A stretch of DNA of 64,000 bases from Escherichia phage KKE7M: sequence record PQ356295.1; one strand, given 5' to 3'. Position numbers and translations under genes: made by a program. This document shows, piece by piece, positions 1,496-63,439 of the stretch. The first letter of the stretch is position 1. The number at the start of each line of letters is the position of its first letter. The notes beneath the pieces were generated by a model. It did not search any database. It saw only the letters and a list, made by a program, of their open reading frames with translations, and was not told the origin of the DNA.

Positions 1496-2059
1496 ATGAT
1501 ATTTCACATAACTCCCTATCTTTCTGGAGATATTGGAAAAGGTATCAATGACACAATAAGTGTCTTACCAGAAGATAGTTGGATTTGCCTAAGAGACATT
1601 GATACAATGTTTCTTCTTCCAGAACAACCTGCTTGGTTGGAATCAATAGTCCGTTCAAATCCTGATTTTGATGTTCTTGGTGCATCTTGTAATAGATTGG
1701 GATCAACATATCAATTATTTAATAATGAAAGAAGTGAAGATCCAAATATATTACACCACATTGAGATTGCAAAAAGAGCACATCTAGAATGGGGAAACTC
1801 AATAGAGGAAGTACCTACAGATGCTATCTTAGCAGGATTCTTTCTTCTCTTTCGTAAGAGTCTGTGGAATGAAATCCCTTTTGAGGAAAGATCAATACAG
1901 TTTGATATAATTTTCTCTAAAGCATTACATGCTAATAATAAAAGGCTAGGTTTACTACGTGGGTTATATTTATTTCACACCTACCGTTTAGGTAATGATG
2001 ATCCTAGAAAAGCTGTTTCACACCTTTTACATTGTCAAGACATGAATAAAATTATTTAA
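1496..2059 (+). CDS. Hypothetical protein (187 aa)
   Basis: ATG preceded by GGAGGGAG; compact spacing to neighbours. Confidence 0.6.
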   Translation: MIFHITPYLSGDIGKGINDTISVLPEDSWICLRDIDTMFLLPEQPAWLESIVRSNPDFDVLGASCNRLGSTYQLFNNERSEDPNILHHIEIAKRAHLEWGNSIEEVPTDAILAGFFLLFRKSLWNEIPFEERSIQFDIIFSKALHANNKRLGLLRGLYLFHTYRLGNDDPRKAVSHLLHCQDMNKII

Positions 2060-2068
2060 GGAGTTATT

Positions 2069-2755
2069 TTGGAAAATACAAAAATCGGTGTTGGTGTTAT
2101 TACTGTAGGTAAGCGTCCTCTTAAAGATTATCTTGTGACTGATCCTAATGCTACTTTTGTTGTGCAGTATGATCGGGAACGAAAAGGTGTTGCATATGCT
2201 CGTAATGAACTGATGAAAAAGTTTTATGACGAAGGGTATGACTACTGGTTTATTTTTGATGATGATTGCTATCCTGTTGTTCCAGGTTGGGAAACATATT
2301 TTGTAAAACAGGCGAAGGAAAATGGTTGGGATTTCTTTGGTATGCCTGAATACTTTAAAGATAAAGTAAAAGGTATTGAAGGGGAAGTGGTTATTTGGGA
2401 GCTAGGTATGTGCCAGTTTGGTATGTATTCCCGTGCAGTTATTGAGAAAGCTGGCTATTTCCGCTCATACACCCACGGTTATGGATATGAAGATGCAGAG
2501 TGGATTCAGCGCGTTCCACTGGCAGGTTTGAACCGAGGTATTCAAGGCGTACCATGTCCTATTCGAATTATGGCGTTTATCCATCCTGACGATGTGTTTG
2601 GAGATAATCCTTTACCTTTTGCGAATCTGTCAAAAGAAGAGAAAGAACAGGGGATTGGTGTAAACTGGGAACAATATAAACAATCACTGGAGGATCTTCG
2701 CAATGGTAAAACTTTTATCTCTTATGAGGAGGCTCAAAAATATGGTAAATCCTAA
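2069..2755 (+). CDS. Putative GT-A-fold glycosyltransferase
   Basis: TTG start after AAGGAG; DxD-type motif YWFIFDDDCYP and downstream YGYEDAEW typical of GT-A enzymes; function inferred from motifs only. Confidence 0.45.
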   Translation: MENTKIGVGVITVGKRPLKDYLVTDPNATFVVQYDRERKGVAYARNELMKKFYDEGYDYWFIFDDDCYPVVPGWETYFVKQAKENGWDFFGMPEYFKDKVKGIEGEVVIWELGMCQFGMYSRAVIEKAGYFRSYTHGYGYEDAEWIQRVPLAGLNRGIQGVPCPIRIMAFIHPDDVFGDNPLPFANLSKEEKEQGIGVNWEQYKQSLEDLRNGKTFISYEEAQKYGKS

Positions 2756-3716
2756 TACTCCTGTACTTAAGTGTGATAATAAGTTAGGCAGTGGGTGTGA
2801 TTACCATCGTATTGTAATGCCATTTGCGGGAAATACGTTTAAGCCTAAGAAAGACGTTTTAGTTTTTAATAGAGTGTATTCTCGTGGATCAGACGAGGTT
2901 AAACGCCTGAAGGCACAAGGTGTTAAGATTATTGTTGACTTAGATGACTTTTATTCACTTAACCCTGAACATTATATGGCTGGCGTATTTACTAATCACT
3001 CAAAGACTATTGTAGAGATGGTTAAGTTAGCAGATGTTGTTACTGTAACAACAGAATACCTAGCTTACAAAATTCGTCATTTAAATCGTAATGTTGTCGT
3101 TATTAGAAACGCACTGCCTTACGATGAAGGTCAATTTACTTTAACAAAAGACCGTTATTCTGACACGCCTATTGTTTGGGCTGGAGGAGCAAGCCATGAA
3201 CCTGATTTATCTCTTGTAGCTAATACATTTGATGATACACTATTGACAATTGCAGGGTATGAAGTGTATCCTTCTGCACCTGTTGGAAATAATAGTCAGT
3301 ATCTAACTACTGCGGAGTGGGTTAAAGTAAAACGTAAAATTCCAAATGCACAGTATAAACCTGCTATTAAAAATTTAGGTGAGTATATGTCTGTGTATGA
3401 CGGTCACAGTATTGCAATTGCTCCTCTGGTAGACAATGACTTCAACAACTGTAAAAGCAATTTGAAGATTTTGGAAGCAGGTGCAAAGGGTCTTCCTATT
3501 ATCTGTTCTCCTGTGCTGCCGTACTTCAATCCGGTAGATGCAAAGGCTGTTATTTATGCAGACTCTAAAGCATCTTGGCATTATGAAGTTGTCAAGCTAA
3601 TGAGAAACCCTAGATACACAGAAGATCGTGGTATGATGCTTGCAGAACACGTTCGTCTTAATTATAATCTTGCAGATGCCAATGAACTGCGTCGTCAAGT
3701 TATTGAAAGTCTTTAA
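2742..3716 (+). CDS. Putative GT-B-like glycosyltransferase, paralog 1 of tandem pair
   Basis: ATG 2742 after GAGGAGG (track ORF starts at 2703); C-terminal motif NCKSNLKILEAGAKGLPIICSP; colinear similarity to 3728-4672. Confidence 0.45.
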   Translation: MVNPNTPVLKCDNKLGSGCDYHRIVMPFAGNTFKPKKDVLVFNRVYSRGSDEVKRLKAQGVKIIVDLDDFYSLNPEHYMAGVFTNHSKTIVEMVKLADVVTVTTEYLAYKIRHLNRNVVVIRNALPYDEGQFTLTKDRYSDTPIVWAGGASHEPDLSLVANTFDDTLLTIAGYEVYPSAPVGNNSQYLTTAEWVKVKRKIPNAQYKPAIKNLGEYMSVYDGHSIAIAPLVDNDFNNCKSNLKILEAGAKGLPIICSPVLPYFNPVDAKAVIYADSKASWHYEVVKLMRNPRYTEDRGMMLAEHVRLNYNLADANELRRQVIESL

Positions 3717-3727
3717 TAAGGAGCGGT

Positions 3728-4672
3728 ATGCCTAATATTATTCTTGACACACGCGGAAATGAAAAGTATAGTGTATGTGATTTTCATAGAATCATTTTGC
3801 CATATAAACGCAAACTGACCATTAATCCTAAACATAATATTTTTGTGTTCAATGGAGTACCAACCCGTGGAAAGCCAGGTTTCCTGGCTCTTAAACAACT
3901 TGGGTTTAAATTGGTAATGGATCTGGATGATTCTTTAATTATTCCTGAAGGACATATGCTTGAAGGATTATTTGAAAATCAAATCCGAGATGATCTAAAA
4001 TGGTTCCTTGAAAGAAGCGATCTTGTAACTACAACAACTCCAGCATTAAAGGTTGAATTAAGCCAATACAATGATAATGTACATATTGTGCCTAACGGAC
4101 TACCTTTTGATGAAGGACAGTTTGTTCTTACGAAAGATCGTTATTCTAAAAGTCCACTGGTTTGGGCGGGAAGTGAAACACATAAACATGATTTAGCTAT
4201 TCTTCCTAGTTTTGGTAAAGATTTAACTTTATGTGGATTTCGTAGAGATCACGAAGAGTTAAGTAGTGCTCAATGGTTGCAAATTAAAGAAGATATTCAA
4301 CCAGATTGTGTTTACGAAGGTATTCGTCCTTATGAGTGCTATATGGAAGCATACGATGGTCATCAAATCTCCATAGCTCCATTAGTAAATAATCATTTTA
4401 ATAATGCCAAAAGTAATTTAAAAATTCTTGAAGCTGGTGCTAAAGGTTTGCCACTCGTTTGTTCACCACGAGAGAACTATTATACTGAAGAGTTTAAAGA
4501 TCTAATCTTCTTTGCTGATTCAGTTAAAGAGTGGAAAGATATTGTAGAATACTTAATCGAATCTCCTGATGTTTGTATTGAGAAAGGATTGGCTCTTGCT
4601 AAGTATGTAAGAGATAACTACAATATTGATGATTTAAATGAAACCCGCAGACTGCTTATCGAGGATTTATAA
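3728..4672 (+). CDS. Putative GT-B-like glycosyltransferase, paralog 2 of tandem pair
   Basis: AAGGAG RBS; shares blocks CD[YF]HRI, DLDD, LP[YF]DEGQF[TV]LTKDRYS, NAKSNLKILEAGAKGLP with the upstream gene. Confidence 0.45.
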   Translation: MPNIILDTRGNEKYSVCDFHRIILPYKRKLTINPKHNIFVFNGVPTRGKPGFLALKQLGFKLVMDLDDSLIIPEGHMLEGLFENQIRDDLKWFLERSDLVTTTTPALKVELSQYNDNVHIVPNGLPFDEGQFVLTKDRYSKSPLVWAGSETHKHDLAILPSFGKDLTLCGFRRDHEELSSAQWLQIKEDIQPDCVYEGIRPYECYMEAYDGHQISIAPLVNNHFNNAKSNLKILEAGAKGLPLVCSPRENYYTEEFKDLIFFADSVKEWKDIVEYLIESPDVCIEKGLALAKYVRDNYNIDDLNETRRLLIEDL

Positions 4673-4941
4673 TGAACACTTTTGATTTTGAGTATAAACA
4701 AGATAATAAAGAACCTATTATTGTTGAAGTAGATTACTATTATGAAGAACCTAATCCTTTCTCACGAGAAAGTGATTGGGATTATTATGGTGGTCTTATT
4801 GTTGATGGTATTAGGTTTTATTCTGGTACAAAAGAACTTTTTGATATAGATATTTCCCCATCGGAAATTGTTTACCAATTTAAGAAACATATGGAAGATT
4901 TGGAAATGCAATATATTATGGAGACAAACGAATCATTTTAG
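4672..4941 (+). CDS. Hypothetical acidic protein (89 aa)
   Basis: ATG overlaps upstream stop (TAATG). Confidence 0.55.
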   Translation: MNTFDFEYKQDNKEPIIVEVDYYYEEPNPFSRESDWDYYGGLIVDGIRFYSGTKELFDIDISPSEIVYQFKKHMEDLEMQYIMETNESF

Positions 4942-4953
4942 TAGGAGAATCAT

Positions 4954-6726
4954 GTGTCTTATGTTGTAAATAAATATGGGTATAACATTGATCTAAGTCA
5001 AGAAGGACATACTGGGTGTCCTCGTTGTATGAAAGGAGGACGTGATCGATCACAAAACAATTTAATGGTATATGGCTTAGATGCCGATGAAGACCATCGA
5101 GGCGCACATTGTTTTTCTTGTGGCTTTACTATCCCTGATCAAAAATGGTTAAATACACACGGCGAAGAAATTGAAGAGGAGGATATCTTGGGTAGTGAGT
5201 TTAATCCAGAAGTGCATGATAAGCTAAAAGCCAGCACTGGAACTAATCCAAAAGGTTATCGCGGTATTCGTGAAGATATCTCTAAGCCTTTCGGTGTACG
5301 CTATATGTACGATGAAGCCACTGGCGAAGTAATTTCAACACTATACCCTACAACTAAAGATTACAATATTGCTGGGTATAAACAACGTATTGATCCAAAA
5401 GATTTTTCGCATCCTATCGGTGAAACAGGAAAGGATTGTGATCTTTTTGGTGAGTTTAAATATCGTAACCACAGTGGTACTATTCTAATCGTTGGTGGTG
5501 AACACGATATGCTGGCTGCAACACAGATGCTAAAAGATTATAACAAGGGTGGTAAATACCCTGTTCCTGCTGTAGTATCTGGTACTTGTGGCGAAACATC
5601 TCTGCATAAGCAGCTTCAACATCGTTATAAATTCTTAGATCAATTTAAAAAGATTGTTCTATGTATGGACAATGATGAAGCTGGACGTGCAGCAGTTGAG
5701 AAATGTGTTAAAATCTTACCACGTAATAAAGTTTACGTGATGGAACTAACTGATGTTAAAGATCCTAACCAGGCGTTAGTAGAAGGAAAAATTGATCATT
5801 TTATTGATCGCTTTTTCAAAGCTAAACTGTACACACCTGCTGGTGTTTATGCTTCTAACGTGCTGTACGAAGCAGCCTTGGAATGCCTGGAAGCTAAAAT
5901 GATCACCCTTCCTCCATTCATGCGTGTTGCTTCTAATATGTTAGGTGGAGGCTTGGTAGAAGAAGAAATTACTGTTATACTTGCAAAAACAAGTATCGGT
6001 AAGACACTGTTGGTTAACGAGATTACGAAGCACATTATTCTTGCACACCCAGAACATACTCTTGGTATTTTATCTTTGGAGGCAACGTATAAGAAGTATT
6101 CTCGTAACTTACTGTCTTCATTCTTGCATATCCCTCTTCACCGTAAAACGAAAGAAGAGAAGGAAAAGATTTTAAAAGATAATGAAGAAAAGATTCGTGA
6201 TTTTTACGAACGGGAAGATGGAACACCACGTTTCTATGTTTGTGATGATCGTGGAGCTAACGTAGATGTGATTAAAGAGAAGGTTCTGGAAATGATTATT
6301 TATTTCGGAGTAACCATTCTTGTTATCGACCCTTATTCTGATTTGCTTTCTGGTATGGACGTGTCACAACAAGAGGAACTTGCGACGTGGCTCAAACGCA
6401 TTATGAAAGAGTACGCAATCACCATTGTTGTAATTTCACACGTTAAAAAGTCTTCTAACAATAGCAATGAACATATTGTAGAAGATGATGCAATGGGTAG
6501 TAGCTTCCTTGCTAAAGGTGCTGGTATCACAATTGCGCTGGAGCGTGATAAACAAGCTGAAGATCCTATGGAACGTAACCGCACATATTGCTACATTCTA
6601 AAGAACCGTGAGTTCTCAGAGACTGGTGCAGCAGGTAGTTTCTTCTATGAGATTAAAACAGCTACACTTCACGATTACGATCAATACACAAGTAACCCAG
6701 AGAATATTCCTGCTGGTTCTTATTAA
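4954..6726 (+). CDS. DNA primase/helicase (T7 gp4-like bifunctional)
   Basis: GTG start after AGGAG; zinc finger CPRC...CFSC; Toprim-like CMDNDEAGR; Walker A LAKTSIGKT and Walker B-like VIDPYSD. Confidence 0.9.
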   Translation: MSYVVNKYGYNIDLSQEGHTGCPRCMKGGRDRSQNNLMVYGLDADEDHRGAHCFSCGFTIPDQKWLNTHGEEIEEEDILGSEFNPEVHDKLKASTGTNPKGYRGIREDISKPFGVRYMYDEATGEVISTLYPTTKDYNIAGYKQRIDPKDFSHPIGETGKDCDLFGEFKYRNHSGTILIVGGEHDMLAATQMLKDYNKGGKYPVPAVVSGTCGETSLHKQLQHRYKFLDQFKKIVLCMDNDEAGRAAVEKCVKILPRNKVYVMELTDVKDPNQALVEGKIDHFIDRFFKAKLYTPAGVYASNVLYEAALECLEAKMITLPPFMRVASNMLGGGLVEEEITVILAKTSIGKTLLVNEITKHIILAHPEHTLGILSLEATYKKYSRNLLSSFLHIPLHRKTKEEKEKILKDNEEKIRDFYEREDGTPRFYVCDDRGANVDVIKEKVLEMIIYFGVTILVIDPYSDLLSGMDVSQQEELATWLKRIMKEYAITIVVISHVKKSSNNSNEHIVEDDAMGSSFLAKGAGITIALERDKQAEDPMERNRTYCYILKNREFSETGAAGSFFYEIKTATLHDYDQYTSNPENIPAGSY

Positions 6727-7221: not shown

Positions 7222-9801
7222 ATGGGAGCTTTTACTTTCGACATTGAAAGTAACAACTTGCTTAATGACGAAAGTGTAGATTACTTGGCAAGTCCATATC
7301 GTTTAAAAGATAGTTTTGCAATGCACTGTATTGTGTGCGAAAGTCATGATACTGGAGAGATTATTGCTTTCCATGATGGTGATAAATATCTTTTCGATGG
7401 TCGTCCGTATGTTGAGACTGACGGAAAGTATGAATACCGACTGGAGGAATATGAGCATTTAGAATATACCCATTTCCCTCTTAAAGATTTTCCTGATTTT
7501 GTAAATGGAACAGGTAAATTTAAAGGTAATTCAAACTATAAAATTACCAAAGTAGTTGGACACAACATCATTAACTTCGACTTACTGGCAATTAAATTAT
7601 TTTTTAAACTCAACTACAGTATTAAGTACAATACTTGGGGTAATAGTAACATTGAAATTTGTGATACTATGATCTTAAGTAAGACACTAAACCCTGATCG
7701 CTTCGGTGGTCATAGTCTGGCAGAGTTATCTAAGAAAGCTGGAGGGGATGTTAAAATTGATTTTAGAAAAAACATCCCTGAAACTGAAAGATTTAAAACA
7801 TTTGCAGCAGATATGCTGTATTACTGTATTTACGATAACAAAGCTAACACCGCAGTGTTCCGTTATTTAATGGAAGAGTGGGGTGATTATAGTAAGTGGT
7901 CTGAACCATTTAACTTAGAACAACGTGTAGCTGATATTATTACACGTCAAGAGCACCGTGGCTTTGCTTTCAATATGAAACAAGCAGAAGATAATATTCG
8001 TGATCTGGATGCTCGAATGGAAGCATGTCGTTTAGAGGCAGAACCTGTACTACCTCCTAAACCTGCTACTAAAGGTTATTTGAAATCATTCATTCCACCT
8101 AAACTACAGTTTAAAAAGAATGGTGAACCTTCAAGTAACATGATAAAGTTTGCAGAGAAACATTCTGGTGAACTTGTACAAAAAGAAGATGGTTGGTGGT
8201 TATTTGCATTAGGTAAAGAGTTTAAACTCCCTATTCCAGCAGAAGAACCTATTTGTGATCCTACAGTACCTGCTACTTTAGACGACACTACACATATTAA
8301 AAATTGGTTGGTTGGTTTAGGTTGGAGTCCATCTGAATATAAAGATAAAGATATCACTCTTAAATCTGGCACTAAGATTAAGAAAGATGAAGCACAAATG
8401 GAGAAAGCTATTCGTGACTATGTTGATCAAACATTAGCATCTAACTTCTGCCAGGATAGATGTGATCATCTGGAGTGCACACCAGAAACTTTGGAATGGA
8501 AACTAAGAGATCGTATTGCTAAAGCTAAAGGTCGTGGTGTTAAAGTGCTTACTAACCCTTCCTTTACAAAAGGGCAAGAGAAGGATATTTGTCCTAACTT
8601 GGAAGCACTAGGTGAAAAGTTTCCTTATGCTACGCAGATTGTGCAGTATCTTACGTATAAACATCGTAGGAACTCTATCCTAGGGGGTGGTGCTGATTGG
8701 GAAGAAGATGAAGAGGATTACGATAAAGGTTATCTGGCGGCAGTAAGGGCTGATGGTCGTATACCAACTCCTGCTGCAACGTGTGATGCAGCTACGTCTC
8801 GTATGAAACATAGATTAGTAGCAAACATTCCACGTGTAACATCTTTGTATGGGTATGAAATGCGTAACTTATTTGGTGTAGAAGTTCCAAAATACTTCCA
8901 GATTGGTTATGACTTCGATTCTCTTGAAGCAAAAATAGAATCACACTACTGTTGGCGGTACGAGCAGGAACCACACGAATATTGTAATGCTCTATTGTTG
9001 GAAAAACCTAATGATGTTCATACAATGATGGCTCGACGTATTTCTGATACTATTGGTCGTAAGTTTGAACGAAGCCCTGCTAAGTCTGTTAAGTATGGTA
9101 TTACTTATGGTGCTCAAGCTGCAAAAGTAGCAAAAACCATTGGTAGTGATATGTATACAGGACAGCTTGTATACGATGCTTTCTGGGAAGCTGCAAAACC
9201 TCTTGCTCTTCTTAAAGAACGTCTGCATGATTTTTGGGTTAAAACAGGTAAGAAATACATTCTTGGTATTGATGGTAGGAAAGTACCTACACGATCTGCA
9301 CACGCAATACTTAACTCTCTGTTCCAGAGTGGTGGTGTTATTTGTGCAAAAAGAGCAATGGTTATCTACGATGATCTTATCGAAGAAGAAGGATTAGCTG
9401 TTGACTTTTTTGTTGATGACTGGAAAAATAAGTCATTCGTTCAACAAATGATTGCATATCACGATGAAGCGCAGCTTGAAGTAACTCGTGATCTGGTGCA
9501 TTTTAAATGGTTCTCTAAAGAATCTTTAGGTTGGACTCAAGTTGATGATCCAGATGAACAAAAGAAAATTGATAAAGAATGTTTGGATAAAGTTAATGCC
9601 TGGAAAGAAGAGGAAGAGAAACGTACTGGCAAGATTTGGGCTAACGTACATGAGTCTCCAAAAGGTGGTTGGTTTACAGCCTACAGTCGTGCTGGAGAAT
9701 TAGCATCTATCGCTGTTAATAAAGCTGGTGAGTATTACAATCTTAATGTACCTCTCACTGCTGGTTACGATGTTGGTAACTCATGGGCGTCTTGTCACTA
9801 G
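7222..9801 (+). CDS. DNA polymerase, family A (Pol I-like with N-terminal exonuclease region)
   Basis: GGAGGGAG RBS; Pol A motifs KSVKYGITYGAQ (motif B-like) and YHDEAQLEV (motif C HDE); 859 aa. Confidence 0.9.
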   Translation: MGAFTFDIESNNLLNDESVDYLASPYRLKDSFAMHCIVCESHDTGEIIAFHDGDKYLFDGRPYVETDGKYEYRLEEYEHLEYTHFPLKDFPDFVNGTGKFKGNSNYKITKVVGHNIINFDLLAIKLFFKLNYSIKYNTWGNSNIEICDTMILSKTLNPDRFGGHSLAELSKKAGGDVKIDFRKNIPETERFKTFAADMLYYCIYDNKANTAVFRYLMEEWGDYSKWSEPFNLEQRVADIITRQEHRGFAFNMKQAEDNIRDLDARMEACRLEAEPVLPPKPATKGYLKSFIPPKLQFKKNGEPSSNMIKFAEKHSGELVQKEDGWWLFALGKEFKLPIPAEEPICDPTVPATLDDTTHIKNWLVGLGWSPSEYKDKDITLKSGTKIKKDEAQMEKAIRDYVDQTLASNFCQDRCDHLECTPETLEWKLRDRIAKAKGRGVKVLTNPSFTKGQEKDICPNLEALGEKFPYATQIVQYLTYKHRRNSILGGGADWEEDEEDYDKGYLAAVRADGRIPTPAATCDAATSRMKHRLVANIPRVTSLYGYEMRNLFGVEVPKYFQIGYDFDSLEAKIESHYCWRYEQEPHEYCNALLLEKPNDVHTMMARRISDTIGRKFERSPAKSVKYGITYGAQAAKVAKTIGSDMYTGQLVYDAFWEAAKPLALLKERLHDFWVKTGKKYILGIDGRKVPTRSAHAILNSLFQSGGVICAKRAMVIYDDLIEEEGLAVDFFVDDWKNKSFVQQMIAYHDEAQLEVTRDLVHFKWFSKESLGWTQVDDPDEQKKIDKECLDKVNAWKEEEEKRTGKIWANVHESPKGGWFTAYSRAGELASIAVNKAGEYYNLNVPLTAGYDVGNSWASCH

Positions 9802-9884
9802 TATCTATTTGATTTTAAAGGAGTTTTTATGTGGGACAACCTATTATTGCCAAGGTTGTTCCGCACTTTTAAACCATTTCATAA

Positions 9885-9904
9885 CTAGATGTTTGAACAT
9901 CTAG
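9885..9904 (+). promoter_or_regulatory. Dyad-symmetric site CTAGATGTT-tg-AACATCTAG upstream of 9939 gene
   Basis: 9-bp perfect inverted repeat read directly; could be an operator or an RNA hairpin. Confidence 0.35.
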
Positions 9905-9938
9905 AATAATGCAAAGACCATAAGAGATAGGAGAAAAT

Positions 9939-10532
9939 ATGAATATTGAAGATCAAAAAGTACGCGCTTTAGAAGTATTACGTATGTGCCAACTGGTAGA
10001 TCCGTTTGCAATTGTAGCTGGCGGCGCTGTACGTGATTGGCGATTAGAGAAACCTGCGCAAGATATTGACATTTACTTGCGTATGCCTAACCACAATACA
10101 CTCGTACTAGTAGAGAAATTTTTGATGTTAGGTGTTGGTGCACGTAATGTGAAACAACTTACTAAGCAAACAGAACATACTTATGCCGAACTACCACATT
10201 TGAAATGGGTATTTGAAGCATACTATAAAGATCTTAAGTTTAACTTTATGATCATGGAAGAAGGTGTACGCAGTGAAATCGTATGGAACTTTGATGTAGC
10301 TATCTGCCTGTGTTACTGGGATGGTCAAAACTATGTATATCATCCAGATTTTGAATTTGCATTGAAGACTAATATTTGCACTATTAATCACCGATACACA
10401 GGTAAAGAAGCACACGTCCGTAAAATGGCAGAACGTTTCCCTATGTTCCGTTTTGTAAAAGACGTTTTCATTCCTAAAGAGCCAGAAGTACGTACACTGG
10501 ATTCATTTAACAATGAAGAATTTAAAATTTAA
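9939..10532 (+). CDS. Minimal nucleotidyltransferase of the CCA-adding / poly(A) polymerase head-domain family
   Basis: Motif IVAGGAVRDWRLEKPAQDIDIYL matches the GGxVRD...DxD signature of class II tRNA nucleotidyltransferases; only 197 aa. Confidence 0.55.
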   Translation: MNIEDQKVRALEVLRMCQLVDPFAIVAGGAVRDWRLEKPAQDIDIYLRMPNHNTLVLVEKFLMLGVGARNVKQLTKQTEHTYAELPHLKWVFEAYYKDLKFNFMIMEEGVRSEIVWNFDVAICLCYWDGQNYVYHPDFEFALKTNICTINHRYTGKEAHVRKMAERFPMFRFVKDVFIPKEPEVRTLDSFNNEEFKI

Positions 10533-10535
10533 GTG

Positions 10536-10565
10536 TTGACAAACATTATAATTATGTGTTATTAT
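10536..10565 (+). promoter_or_regulatory. Sigma70-like promoter: TTGACA -N18- TATTAT with TGn extension
   Basis: Perfect -35 hexamer, 18-nt spacer, TGtTATTAT; only ~10 nt before the ATG at 10576, so a very short leader. Confidence 0.4.
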
Positions 10566-10575
10566 GAGGACTTGA

Positions 10576-10974
10576 ATGACAGATAATCGTTCTAAAATCT
10601 TAGTCGAGACGTTCTACAGTAGAGAAACTAATCGTCTTGAGCTAACCAAAAAAGATGTTGAACCTCAAGATAATACCTTTTTTATTCAAATACTATGTCT
10701 CTTTGGTGGATACAATCGTTTAACAGTGAGAGTAGAAAACAAAGAGATATCTGAAACCACTATCACAAAACGTGAGCTTATGCTACTACAGGATACAATA
10801 CGAGATGTTTTGGATAATCCTGGAAAAGCAAAAGTAATTAATCTTGGTGGAGAAAAGATACAAATTCTCCATTTTGAAAGTGGTGAAATAGGCTTTGGTA
10901 TTGGTCTTGGTAAATACCTGTTGGAAGAAACTGACGCTACTCTTTTACGAGAGTTTTGTGTTAAAGTAATGTAA
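10576..10974 (+). CDS. Hypothetical protein (132 aa)
   Basis: ORF in track with GAGGA upstream. Confidence 0.55.
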   Translation: MTDNRSKILVETFYSRETNRLELTKKDVEPQDNTFFIQILCLFGGYNRLTVRVENKEISETTITKRELMLLQDTIRDVLDNPGKAKVINLGGEKIQILHFESGEIGFGIGLGKYLLEETDATLLREFCVKVM

Positions 10975-10990
10975 TTATAGAGGAGAATTT

Positions 10991-11938
10991 ATGCCAGTAA
11001 TTAATTCTGAAATCGACCGCCGTACTAAAAAAGAAGCATTCTGGGCTGAAGGTATTGTCGAATATGTCAAACTAGATAAGTTTGATGAAATGAAAGTCTC
11101 TTATATTAAGGTTGCAGGTCAGCCAGATAAGAAAATTGAATCAACTCACAAAGCATCTCTGCTTATTAAAGAGAAAGGTGCTGGTGCTGATGATAAAGGA
11201 GTTTGGGTTAGCCTAGGTGAAGTTAAACTGCACCCAGAACATGAAAACCTGCAAGTTAAAGATGGTGATAAGTGGGTTACTATCGAAAAAGGTGTAGAAC
11301 TAACTATGGATGTTAAACCTTCTGAATGGAATGGTAAAACATACTACAATTCCTCTAAAGGTAAAATCACTATTCTTTCAACAGAAGGTGTTCAGCAAGC
11401 ACAATCCTCTTCAAAAGGTGGAAATAAGCCATCTAATAACGACGGTAGCAAGCCTAACTACAAAAAACGTGATACCGTAGGGATTGAAACAGGACACGCT
11501 GTAAACGGCGCTCTGGAGCTTCTACGTGCTGGTGTGAAAGGTGATGCTTTCGACTTGGCTGGTGTGGTACAATCTGCAACTGTTACTCTGAAAGCTGAAA
11601 TTGCTAAAGATCGTGGCGTTGACGTGACTGATTATGATCTTGGTGCTTCAGTTGGACACGCAATTCTTAACGCTTGTCGTGATCATACAGGTAAAACTGT
11701 AACGGCAGAAGAGATTATTGAAGCTGCTCGTGAAGTTCTTGCTTTGTCTGATAAAGTAGCTGCTGCTATCCGTGGAATGTCTACCCCAGTACAAGAAGTT
11801 AAGAAAGAAACTAAGAAAGTAGAGAAGAAAGAGCCAGCACCGAAAGAACCAGAACCTGTTGTTCAAGATTTCGATGATGATATCCCATTTGCTCCTATTG
11901 GTTTGCAATATGGTCGAAACTTCCTGCACTGTTTCTAA
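10991..11938 (+). CDS. ssb: Single-stranded DNA-binding protein (SSB-like)
   Basis: Gly/Ser/Asn-rich linker and acidic C-terminal tail ending DDDIPF as in bacterial SSB; sits in the replication module. Confidence 0.65.
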   Translation: MPVINSEIDRRTKKEAFWAEGIVEYVKLDKFDEMKVSYIKVAGQPDKKIESTHKASLLIKEKGAGADDKGVWVSLGEVKLHPEHENLQVKDGDKWVTIEKGVELTMDVKPSEWNGKTYYNSSKGKITILSTEGVQQAQSSSKGGNKPSNNDGSKPNYKKRDTVGIETGHAVNGALELLRAGVKGDAFDLAGVVQSATVTLKAEIAKDRGVDVTDYDLGASVGHAILNACRDHTGKTVTAEEIIEAAREVLALSDKVAAAIRGMSTPVQEVKKETKKVEKKEPAPKEPEPVVQDFDDDIPFAPIGLQYGRNFLHCF

Positions 11939-11998: not shown

Positions 11999-12730
11999 AT
12001 GAGCGAATTTGTAAACAACACCGCATTAAACTACCTGCAAACCCTCGAAAGCAACAGTGTAGATTTGATTCTTACTGACCCACCATATGCTATTTCTCGT
12101 GACACAAATTTTCAATCTGGAGAGCCTACTGGAAAAGATACGGATAGATTCCGTGTATCTTACAACTTTGGTGACTGGGATGTTGTAGATATTCCTTACT
12201 TTAAAGAAGTATTCAAAGAAGCCTATAGGGTGCTTAGAAAAGGTGGTACTTGCATAGTTTGGTATGATATCTGGAAGATCCAGGAGTTACGTGAAATCCT
12301 CGAACCGCTTGGTTTTCGTATGTTCCGTACTATTGAATGGATTAAAACAAACCCTGTACCCATCAACAGTGGTGTTAACTACCTTAGTAACGCTAAAGAG
12401 ATGGCTATTGTTTGTGTTAAAGGTTCGAAGCCAACCTTCAATGCCTCCTACCACAAGGGTGTGTTTGAGTATCCTATCTATCAAGGAGCAGATCGTTTTC
12501 ATCCAACACAAAAACACTTGACTTTGTTTTGTGACCTTATTAATATACATACCAACGAAGGAGATGTAGTCTTAGACTTCTTCTCTGGAAGTGCAACAAC
12601 ACAAGTTGCGGCACTTTTAACAGGTAGAGAATACTTAGGCTGTGAAGCCGATGTAAATATTTTTAAGCAAGCGGAGGAACGACTAAATGAGTACACTGAA
12701 CAGCAAAATCACCCTGAAGGCACTGATTAA
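11999..12730 (+). CDS. DNA methyltransferase (N6-adenine or N4-cytosine, beta-class motif order)
   Basis: N-terminal catalytic DPPY (LILTDPPYAIS) and C-terminal SAM-binding FFSGSATT. Confidence 0.8.
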   Translation: MSEFVNNTALNYLQTLESNSVDLILTDPPYAISRDTNFQSGEPTGKDTDRFRVSYNFGDWDVVDIPYFKEVFKEAYRVLRKGGTCIVWYDIWKIQELREILEPLGFRMFRTIEWIKTNPVPINSGVNYLSNAKEMAIVCVKGSKPTFNASYHKGVFEYPIYQGADRFHPTQKHLTLFCDLINIHTNEGDVVLDFFSGSATTQVAALLTGREYLGCEADVNIFKQAEERLNEYTEQQNHPEGTD

Positions 12731-62101: not shown

Positions 62102-63034
62102 GTGGCTAAGTTCAACTGTGATGACCTGATTGCAAAAGGTTTAGTGCATAAAAAAGAAGTTAAATCTGGAGAGTATGCTGGTCTTGCTGTACTTAAATAC
62201 AAAAACAATGTATTCTGGGACAATTTGTGGGACGTAGACAAACGCCTTCTAGATTGTCGTGGGTTGGTTGTTGACTCAGAAGACAATGTTGTTATTTGGC
62301 CTTTTACTAAAATCTTTAATCGTTTTGAAAATGGTACAGATCTTCCAGCAGACCAACTTGTAGATGCTGTCCGTAAAGTAAACGGTTTTATGGCATCTGT
62401 AGGTGTGTACAAAGGGAAACTTGTTGTATCAACAACAGGGAGCCTAGAATCAGATTTTGCAATTATGGCAAAGAACCGTATTGTTTCCGAGTGTGACGAC
62501 ATAGAGTATTTCATTAAGTGGACAGAAAGTGCAAAAGCAACTTTTCTTTTTGAAATCTGTGATCCTTCTGATCCACATATTGTCGAAGAAGAACCAGGCG
62601 CGTACTTAATTGGAGCAAGAATTCAAAACCTGGATGGGACAAGTTTCATGTTACCTGAAGGTGTTCTTGATGGGATTGCATCTGTTACAAAGTTTAAACG
62701 TCCTGAAGTTTATCCGATGATTAAATTTTCAGATGTTGTTGAAATGTCTAAACATTGTAGACACGAAGGCTTTGTTGTTCGTGAAACAAACTATCCGTTT
62801 AACTTACTCTTAAAGATTAAGTCACCATACTATCTTGCTAAGAAGTTCCTTATGCGTGGTGGTAATAAGAAGTGGGATATGATTTGGGACAACCCAAACA
62901 ATGCTAAACAAATTGTTGACGAAGAATATTATACTTTGCTAGAATGGCTTCGAAATAATTTTACGAAGGTTCAATGGGCTGCTCTAGATTCACAAGAGCG
63001 ACGTAAAGAAATAGAAAACTTCTTTGGAGGCTAA
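62102..63034 (+). CDS. ATP-dependent RNA ligase (Rnl-type nucleotidyltransferase)
   Basis: GTG start; motif I-like KVNG, motif IV-like EGFVVRE, motif V-like LLKIKSP. Confidence 0.65.
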   Translation: MAKFNCDDLIAKGLVHKKEVKSGEYAGLAVLKYKNNVFWDNLWDVDKRLLDCRGLVVDSEDNVVIWPFTKIFNRFENGTDLPADQLVDAVRKVNGFMASVGVYKGKLVVSTTGSLESDFAIMAKNRIVSECDDIEYFIKWTESAKATFLFEICDPSDPHIVEEEPGAYLIGARIQNLDGTSFMLPEGVLDGIASVTKFKRPEVYPMIKFSDVVEMSKHCRHEGFVVRETNYPFNLLLKIKSPYYLAKKFLMRGGNKKWDMIWDNPNNAKQIVDEEYYTLLEWLRNNFTKVQWAALDSQERRKEIENFFGG

Positions 63035-63439
63035 ATGAAACAACTTATCATTTTACGTGGTGTTTCAGGCGCAGGTAAATCTACAGTAGCAGAAATTATT
63101 TCTGAAGGTTATTGGCCTATCTGTGAGGCAGATCAATATCATTACACAGAAAACGGTGTTTACGATTGGAAGCCAGAAAATGTAGGTAAAGCACACGCAT
63201 GGTGTCAGAGTATTGTTCGTGATGCTATGGCATCTAATATTAAAAAGATTATTGTCTCTAACACTTCAACCACAGAGAAAGAACTTAAACCTTATTTTAC
63301 TCTTGCTGAAGAGTTTGGTTATCAAGTTATCTCTTTAGTTGTTGAAAATAGGCACGGTAACGACTCAATTCATGAGGTTCCACAACATACTCGTGATCAG
63401 CAAGAGAAACGTCTTCGCAGTTCACTTAAGCTACAATAA
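63035..63439 (+). CDS. Polynucleotide 5'-kinase (T4 Pnk kinase-domain-like P-loop protein, no phosphatase domain)
   Basis: Walker A GVSGAGKST; IIVSNTST and LAEEFGYQV blocks parallel the T4 Pnk kinase domain; 134 aa. Confidence 0.65.
   Translation: MKQLIILRGVSGAGKSTVAEIISEGYWPICEADQYHYTENGVYDWKPENVGKAHAWCQSIVRDAMASNIKKIIVSNTSTTEKELKPYFTLAEEFGYQVISLVVENRHGNDSIHEVPQHTRDQQEKRLRSSLKLQ

Follow-up and report, generated by a model that had tools for sequence, protein, structure and literature searches.

Gad2 ('Gabija anti-defence 2') is ORF_159 of Bacillus phage SPbetaL7, a protein of 400 amino acids encoded at the locus that holds gad1 in other SPbeta-like phages. Deletion of gad2 from SPbetaL7 leaves the phage fully Gabija-sensitive, the cloned SPbetaL7 gene is toxic, a homolog encoded by a prophage of Brevibacillus laterosporus abolishes Gabija defence, and AlphaFold predicts a nucleotidyltransferase domain in the protein (10.1101/2023.05.01.538930). 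The SPbetaL7 GenBank record annotates the gene as Gad2, which is among the few anti-defence proteins thought to be enzymatic. Here, a gene in a 64,000-nucleotide (nt) stretch of Escherichia phage KKE7M (PQ356295.1; hereafter the window, position 1 being its first letter) is compared with Gad2. This open reading frame (ORF), at 9939-10532, encodes a stand-alone nucleotidyltransferase (NTase) of 197 residues. Profile matches and a predicted structure indicate that the protein is, very probably, one of the short forms of the Gad2 family (PF26128). This phage-specific family branches off from the class II nucleotidyltransferases, which comprise CCA-adding enzymes and poly(A) polymerases.

Family membership and predicted fold

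The window phage is a phi92-like E. coli myovirus (Stephanstirmvirinae, Justusliebigvirus). Between 9000 and 12000 it shares 97.6-98.7% identity with phages AV123, Eryne, Paula, phi92 and others, and the NTase ORF is 97-100% identical among phi92-like phages. A preliminary description of this DNA had placed at 9939-10532 a 197-residue ORF bearing GGAVRD...DIDI, and both ORF and motif were found exactly as claimed. The protein contains VAGGAVRDWRLEKPAQDIDIYL, in which G28-G29-A-V-R32-D33 and D42-I-D44-I are present; the motif stretch reads VAGGAVRDW...QDIDIYL.

9939-10532, plus strand: stand-alone nucleotidyltransferase, 197 amino acids, ATG start; ortholog of phi92 gp158
9939-10532, plus strand: very probable short-form member of Pfam PF26128 'Gad2' and PHROG 1614, from profile matches and the AlphaFold2 model
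9929-9933, plus strand: Shine-Dalgarno sequence AGGAG, 5 nt before the NTase ATG, read directly from the sequence

The relationship to Gad2 was assessed with a family alignment of 122 homologs (24-46% identity to the query; median length 198 residues) and a Gad2 test set comprising the verified homolog, nine proteins from the authors' Supplementary Table 10 and one long form from our own loci. The family profile matches verified Gad2 with an hhalign probability of 94% (E 1.5e-7, 114 columns) and a 10-sequence Gad2 profile with a probability of 97.7% (E 2.4e-12, 117 columns), aligning NTase residues 20-151 with Gad2 residues 23-141. BLASTP of the NTase against Gad2 gives an E value of 1e-5, and the NTase is the sole match to a Gad2 HMM among the 349 ORFs of the window (E 8e-7). 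A precomputed Pfam hit to PF26128.2 ('Gad2'; E<=1e-5) exists for cluster P0001, which is 99% identical to the NTase. PHROG 1614 is matched by the NTase at 2e-34 and by Gad2 at 2e-6; for PHROG 4400 the values are 7.5e-4 and 5e-29.

Gad2 and the short-form family share AGG...DxDxY, a Gln-bearing strand and F-x-x-[ST]-[IV]-C. On the strand, Gln is found in 100 of the 122 members, Asn (N102) in the window NTase and 'LQIQLIH' in Gad2, and the Gad2 sequence FDFTVCM corresponds to F118-C123. The authors' list of Gad2 homologs includes proteins of 214 and 228 residues, and a Schlesneria homolog from that list reads AGGSLRDY, bridging both motif types. A search of solved structures with the Gad2 profile found no match.

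The short forms are numerous. An exhaustive HMMER search returned 997 cluster representatives (50% identity) at E<=1e-3, 280 of them at E<=1e-10, and almost all are 170-230 residues long. A viral structure library likewise holds many phage homologs of 167-215 residues, for example from LKD16, Pectobacterium PP2, Dickeya Ninurta, Caulobacter Cd1, Aeromonas phiAS7 and ICP1 (ORF223). In Vibrio phage ICP1_2001_A (locus L007, 4959-5535) the homolog matches residues 3-126 only and is annotated as two overlapping ORFs (137 and 60 residues); it is either a frameshifted or a naturally head-only version. Ten longer members (261-400 residues) carry no recognisable extra Pfam domain. Charge is uninformative on nucleic-acid binding: the family has a median pI of 6.3, and E. 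coli Cca is likewise acidic.

Across the 122 homologs G28, G29, W34, D42 and D44 are invariant, and Q6, A10, A27, A30, R32, D33, Y82 and K162 are nearly so. Because the GG...DxD motif is conserved to this degree, it is not a chance match; its invariance at 24-46% identity indicates an active enzyme. In class II enzymes motif A forms the helix-turn that binds the triphosphate of the nucleoside triphosphate (NTP). The motif elements map as follows.

10020-10040, plus strand: motif A, G28-G29-A-V-R32-D33-W34; G28, G29 and W34 invariant, A30 and R32 in 119 of 122, D33 in 111 of 122
10062-10070, plus strand: predicted catalytic metal-binding pair D42-I-D44 on strand beta2 (122 of 122; strand 43-48 in the model)
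10182-10217, plus strand: family-specific loop with Y82 (121 of 122), then strand beta4 with E93
10242-10244, plus strand: N102 on strand beta5, Gln in 100 of 122 members
10290-10307, plus strand: F118-D-V-A-I-C123, counterpart of motif B lacking its two arginines
10395-10442, plus strand: helix Y153...H159-x-x-K162-x-x-x-R166-F167-P168, counterpart of motif D and the neck, lacking EDxxR

The E93 position is Glu in 72, Asp in 13 and Asn in 16 members, making E93 a candidate third acidic residue. In the motif B counterpart F118 is kept in 104 members, S121 in 84, I122 in 82 and C123 in 90. In the motif D counterpart, a helix at 158-166 in the model, K162 is kept in 118 of 122, F167 in 106 and P168 in 95.

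An AlphaFold2 model built on the 122-sequence alignment has a mean pLDDT of 91.7 and a pTM of 0.86, with only residues 188-197 disordered. Its top 44 Foldseek matches are all class II enzymes, the closest solved structures, so the class II head-domain fold assigned in the preliminary description is right. As modelled, the NTase is only the head and first neck helix of a class II (CCA-adding enzyme/poly(A) polymerase) type fold. The check for a better match to another Pol-beta branch, such as the MNT type, returned none: TENT5 (8.1), Pol X (7.5), MenT1 (6.5) and ANT/Lnu (5.5-7.3) all score lower. MNT and HEPN-MNT antitoxins and MenT/AbiEii toxins were thereby ruled out as the closest fold or family, class II matching better.

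Neither the gene nor its family is new to public resources, where it stands as a GenBank 'nucleotidyltransferase' and in PHROG 1614 and Pfam PF26128. Record labels for the gene are 'hypothetical protein', 'nucleotidyltransferase' and 'putative tRNA nucleotidyl transferase/poly(A) polymerase'. The last is probably misleading and is to be taken as a statement of fold only. Separately, the host labels of some records look doubtful: a copy 99% identical to the NTase gene stands in records named 'Campylobacter phage' (for example A110a, MG065689.1, host C. jejuni), and the match of an 'Acinetobacter phage' record to the phAPEC8-type gene is as close as that of Escherichia phAPEC8-like phages.

Comparison with CCA-adding enzymes

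The preliminary description proposed a minimal CCA-type nucleotidyltransferase, of less than half the length of a bacterial CCA-adding enzyme. The length holds, 197 residues being 48% of E. coli Cca (412 residues), and motif A, GGxVRD...DxD on a Pol-beta-type head, is present. The remaining hallmarks are not. PF01743 (PolyA_pol) scores 19.1 bits, below its gathering cutoff of 23 bits, and reaches E<0.01 in only 17 of the 122 family members. Scores with the NCBIfam CCA models are 14-15 bits where the cutoffs are 281-290 (NF009814: 15 against 290), and NCBIfam and PADLOC scans gave nothing useful for the NTase. A match to PF12627, which relatives of E. coli Cca carry together with PF01743, was sought in the NTase and none was found. 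The body and tail domains that hold tRNA in class II enzymes, which total about 370-450 residues in length, are absent from the 197-residue protein. RlaP (PF10127), a Pol-beta nucleotidyltransferase associated with RNA ligases, has no match in the NTase either; the RNA ligase of the window lies 52 kb away.

Motif A is the only stretch that can be aligned to CCA-adding enzymes by sequence. Against PDB sequences, the family profile finds CCA enzymes at E 0.004-0.07, only over about 40 residues of motif A. With hhalign, only residues 24-70 align to an E. coli-type Cca profile (probability 26%), a comparison that is not fully fair because only eight sequences, >=78% identical, make up that shallow profile. 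For this reason motifs B and D were located from the predicted topology, through Gad2 as an intermediate, and by counting motifs without alignment.

In class II enzymes, motif B (RRD) recognises the ribose 2'-OH and motif D (EDxxR) is the amino-acid template that selects CTP and ATP (reviewed in PMC3925840). By predicted topology and the Gad2 alignments, the counterpart of RRDxTINA is N117-F118-D119-V-A-I-C123, and that of the motif D helix is Y153...H159-V-R-K162-M-A-E-R166-F167-P168. RRD occurs in none of the 122 members anywhere, the NTase having N-F-D at the equivalent position. EDxxR occurs in none of the 122 in the equivalent region and in five anywhere; the NTase has GKEAHVRKMAERF there. 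From these counts, no recognisable templating pocket is left. Thus the CCA-type proposal stands as to head fold and motif A and falls as to motifs B and D, the tRNA-binding domains and the PF01743 threshold. On these sequence grounds, a cut-down tRNA CCA-adding enzyme is not supported, and the NTase appears to belong to a family of its own.

Gene neighbourhoods and surrounding sequence

The NTase gene was described as lying among replication genes, and this is borne out by its neighbours in the window.

About 4953-6725: primase-helicase, followed by a 131-residue ORF before PolA
7222-9801: family-A DNA polymerase (PolA), directly preceding the NTase ORF
10576-10974: 132-residue ORF, directly downstream of the NTase
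10991-11938: SSB-like gene, after the 132-residue ORF
11999-12730: DNA methyltransferase, after the SSB-like gene

This linkage extends well beyond the phi92-like phages. ARAGORN and a panel of phmmer markers were run over +/-10 kb in eighty IMG/VR loci; the NTases of these loci form 37 clusters at 50% identity, 30 of which have >=12 kb of sequence. Markers of DNA replication or deoxynucleoside triphosphate (dNTP) synthesis lie near the NTase in 23 of these 30 lineages (77%), RNA-repair markers in three (10%), and tRNAs within 10 kb in seven (23%), with none within 10 kb in the other 23. PolA lies within 3.4 kb in 17 of the 30, and PolA or primase-helicase within 300 bp in seven. As a conserved part, the short form belongs to phage PolA/primase-helicase/dNTP-synthesis modules.

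Individual genomes illustrate this setting. In phAPEC8 the homolog (37% identity) has the same synteny: PolA, small ORFs, NTase, a 130-residue ORF and an SSB-like gene. RNase H-like and HhH2 (FEN-type) genes are near the NTase in a 47-kb Zobellviridae vibriophage, and the family is present in 41-47 kb records and other small phages. In ICP1 the neighbours are DNA ligase, Prs and NadV; in Aeromonas PhAER-3 the homolog directly follows nrdB; in cyanophage PA-SR01 it lies between DNA polymerase and RNR alpha/beta. Among metagenomic contigs, one has ThyX, a Toprim primase and PolA, another a primase-helicase, GIY-YIG and a 5'-3' exonuclease, and further neighbours are a MazG-like PRA-PH enzyme and a dNMP kinase with thymidine kinase.

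Need for a partner domain had also been raised. Across the 80 loci there is no conserved partner gene, and the longer family members have no fused domain, which speaks against it. The 132-residue ORF and the SSB-like gene accompany the NTase only in its own lineage (10 of 80 loci). That ORF falls in a PHROG of unknown function; the idea that it completes a split Gad2 was rejected, as it shows no similarity to the C-terminus of Gad2 (E 2).

The tRNA array and RNA-repair operon invoked in the preliminary description both exist, at a distance of 42-51 kb from the NTase ORF.

52360-55223, minus strand: 15 tRNA genes in an array, each encoding its own 3' CCA
61549-62100, plus strand: metallophosphoesterase-like gene (Metallophos_2; weak, 21 bits)
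62102-63034, plus strand: T4 Rnl1-type RNA ligase (RNA_lig_T4_1, PF09511; 53 bits, above cutoff)
63035-63439, plus strand: AAA_33 polynucleotide-kinase-like protein (40 bits)

The phi92 record lists some tRNAs of the array as 'hypothetical tRNA' or pseudo. In phi92, the healing-and-sealing gene set of 61549-63439 is followed by an ATP-dependent DNA ligase. Since all 15 tRNA genes encode CCA, CCA synthesis is not needed for maturation of the phage tRNAs; the host E. coli also encodes Cca, so only a repair role would remain.

Immediately upstream of the NTase, the reported dyad-symmetric site is present as a perfect inverted repeat.

9885-9904, no strand assigned: perfect 9+9 dyad in the PolA-NTase intergenic region, 35 nt upstream of the NTase

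The dyad reads CTAGATGTT-TG-AACATCTAG, with both 9-nt arms perfect. Folded as RNA, it would give a hairpin of 8 bp and a loop of 4 nt (-9 kcal/mol; z = -2.3 relative to shuffled sequences). The window has about 8 distinct perfect hairpins whose arms reach >=9 nt, a mild enrichment over the 2.8 +/- 2.1 expected from Markov simulations; the dyad is among these and is intergenic. A second copy was sought across the window and none was found, so a repeated regulatory motif was rejected. An intrinsic terminator was likewise rejected: no T-run lies behind the dyad, there is no terminator-like call in 9500-11100, and the terminator annotated in phage Paula sits after the SSB-like gene, not here. The outermost pair changes from C-G to T.G in four close relatives, and a weak -10-like TAGAAT overlaps the dyad. 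Possible roles are in RNA processing or stability, or as an operator.

Other features were noted around the gene. In the PolA-NTase gap, 9829-9888 holds an ORF of 19 codons (MWDNLLLPRLFRTFKPFHN), which has AAAGGAG as a strong ribosome-binding site and a stop codon that overlaps the dyad. It is truncated by an early stop in phage Eryne, whose record annotates a different ORF of 31 residues in this gap, and its conservation as a coding gene is improbable. Between the NTase and the next ORF, which are 43 nt apart, lies a near-consensus sigma-70-like promoter (10536-10565; TTGACA, 18-nt spacer, TG-extended TATTAT, 11/12 match); only 10 nt separate the end of its -10 element from the ATG at 10576. 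A transcript from this promoter would be nearly leaderless, without the GAGG ribosome-binding site. Further away, annotation of syntenic records places four glycosyltransferase genes in a row at about 1500-4700, directly upstream of the primase-helicase and preceded by VWA- and TerD-family genes; these glycosyltransferases could serve DNA or surface glycan modification.

Putative function and comparison with known systems

If the NTase is active, D42 and D44 would hold two Mg2+ ions for nucleotidyl transfer, with E93 and/or the N/Q102 position probably assisting. An NTP or dNTP would then donate one or a few nucleotides to a 3'-OH, most probably that of a nucleic-acid end formed while phage DNA is replicated, or of some other acceptor that matters to host defence. 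The outcome would be enzymatic counter-defence or a replication accessory function, as proposed for Gad2, and not the rebuilding of tRNA CCA ends. That the protein is an active, replication-module-linked Gad2-type NTase acting on a nucleic-acid end or other acceptor is, judging from its sequence, a proposition about evenly balanced between true and false. The functional reading, namely two-metal transfer serving counter-defence or replication, is more tentative. With the ribose-sensing RRD motif lost, either ribonucleoside triphosphates or dNTPs might serve; the conserved aromatic F118 at the RRD position might, as speculation, disfavour ribose.

One extension of this proposal would make the short forms replisome-associated terminal nucleotidyltransferases, derived from a CCA-enzyme head, that tail or cap phage DNA ends or replication/primer intermediates. 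With RRD lost, dNTPs would possibly be used, and the ends would be hidden from DNA-end-sensing OLD-family defences such as Gabija. We consider this extension unlikely. If it were true, the short forms would represent a widespread DNA-end-editing class of counter-defence, of about 1000 sequence clusters, and would reveal the Gad2 mechanism.

Several other functions must be weighed. The head domain, perhaps with a partner, could rebuild tRNA CCA ends that host defences have trimmed or blocked, as a complement to the tRNA array and repair set. The closest solved structures are indeed class II, motif A is class II-like down to R32 and D33, and the window carries 15 tRNAs, the Rnl1-type ligase and the kinase. 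A minority of members and two long-form Gad2 homologs stand beside tRNA arrays or RnlA/PseT, and tRNA 3' ends are known toxin targets (MenT and toxSAS papers). Nevertheless, RRD and EDxxR are missing from all 122 members in the relevant positions, there is no body, tail or PF12627, and PF01743 stays below threshold. The phage tRNA genes encode CCA in 15 of 15 cases in a host that has Cca, the family occurs in small phages, 23 of 30 lineages have no tRNA within 10 kb, and here the tRNA and repair genes are 42-51 kb off with no conserved partner gene. CCA repair is accordingly quite improbable. RNA tailing in the manner of poly(A) polymerase I (PAP I), with decay through PNPase or RNase II feeding nucleoside diphosphates into the neighbouring RNR/dNTP pathway, seems just as improbable. 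It draws on fold rank and neighbourhood; the RNA-binding body and C-terminal domain that PAP I requires are lacking, motifs B and D, common to PAP I and CCA enzymes, are absent, and nothing ties the anti-Gabija effect of Gad2 to RNA decay. Were the protein nonetheless an ordinary RNA-tailing enzyme, the main value of the present analysis would be a corrected annotation.

An acceptor other than nucleic acid, giving a small nucleotide decoy or inhibitor (for example against Gabija) or AMPylation/NMPylation of a host or phage protein, would suit a minimal head-plus-neck protein that lacks a nucleic-acid-binding domain and has nucleotide-metabolism genes nearby. Counting against it, all class II enzymes are, to our knowledge, RNA 3'-end polymerases. 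In its favour, the title of one reference describes GajA as nucleotide-sensing, and phage nucleotidyltransferases making competing cyclic nucleotides provide a precedent (10.1101/2025.06.06.658234). The motifs of the Bcp1-type anti-STING enzyme (GS...SDxD, NP-x-hh[DE]) are, however, absent from the NTase, and the longer members have no fused sensor or effector domain; this acceptor class is also unlikely, if less so than CCA repair or RNA tailing. Identity with the Bcp1-type enzyme itself was rejected on these motifs. Finally, a catalytically inert structural or regulatory protein retaining the fold would fit the relaxed third acidic position (E72/D13/N16) and the truncated or split ICP1 gene. 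Invariance of GG and both aspartates in 122 divergent sequences is typical of active enzymes, which would make inertness very improbable indeed.

A number of observations weigh against an active Gad2-type enzyme of the replication module. Gad2 is about 400 residues long, and its C-terminal region of about 250 residues is absent from the NTase; where the short-form family reads AGGA[PV]RDW, Gad2 reads AGGxxTSLF. The Gad2 mechanism was 'yet to be elucidated' as of February 2026 (PMC12904381), so homology carries over little mechanism. The NTase behaves as a core gene of the replication module, with conserved synteny, and so differs from typical accessory anti-defence genes. The marker panel detects DNA-metabolism genes more readily than RNA-repair genes, which somewhat inflates the neighbourhood contrast, although the close adjacency to PolA or primase-helicase is clear despite this bias. 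RNA-linked members also exist. A short form in L074 has RnlA at a distance of 376 bp and PseT at 1.5 kb, another (L030) is near 17 tRNAs, RlaP and a kinase, and RNA ligases are near three more (L011, L012, L059). Among long forms, that of Escherichia phage 4MG (L019, KF550303.1, 7001-8425, 474 residues) lies about 200 bp past an array of >20 tRNA genes, on the same strand and just before the terminase region, and that of jumbo phage GAP32 (L020) has RnlA 1.5 kb and PseT 3.3 kb away. According to a review, the OLD nuclease, which is related to GajA, cuts tRNA anticodon arms, whereas P. aeruginosa Gabija is reported to act at phage genome ends. Given these RNA-linked short and long forms, a tRNA connection may hold for part of the superfamily. 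One metagenomic phage contig (L014) carries both a long-form Gad2-like gene (3899-4975, 358 residues, AGGALTSLF) and a short form (6001-6564, 187 residues), 1 kb apart, with a Band_7 gene between them and RNR nearby. This proximity suggests non-redundant roles for the two forms.

In the literature, no paper was found on short-form Gad2 relatives in Stephanstirmvirinae or on PolA-module linkage, and no link of Stephanstirmvirinae to Gabija or Gad2 was found. Nothing here is yet surprising to a specialist. Placement with Gad2 does tie a common, uncharacterised phage enzyme of about 190 residues, adjacent to PolA/primase-helicase, to a putatively enzymatic anti-defence protein. The short form is small, apparently self-sufficient and found in easily handled coliphages, making it a convenient model for the search for Gad2-type substrates.

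The NTase can be compared with several known systems. Relative to class II tRNA nucleotidyltransferases and PAP I (PF01743 + PF12627; 1miv, 3h37, 3aql, 4wby), it is less than half the length, lacks body, tail, RRD and EDxxR, and can be aligned over only about 40 residues. The S. pneumoniae protein NP_344798.1 (2la3) is likewise a stand-alone 'CCA-adding enzyme head domain' protein, of 191 residues, but is bacterial rather than phage-encoded, shares 9% identity with the NTase and is detected by neither the family profile nor the Gad2 profile. Bcp1-type (anti-STING/CBASS) and MNT/MenT-type minimal enzymes are likewise small nucleotidyltransferases of the Pol-beta superfamily, used in phage-host conflict. 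Gad2, like the short form, is confined to phages and prophages. In contrast to the short form, Gad2 has neither the Y82 loop nor the E93 strand (a gap in the hhalign alignment), and it lies in the anti-defence locus of SPbeta-like phages, whereas the NTase is a syntenic member of the replication module.

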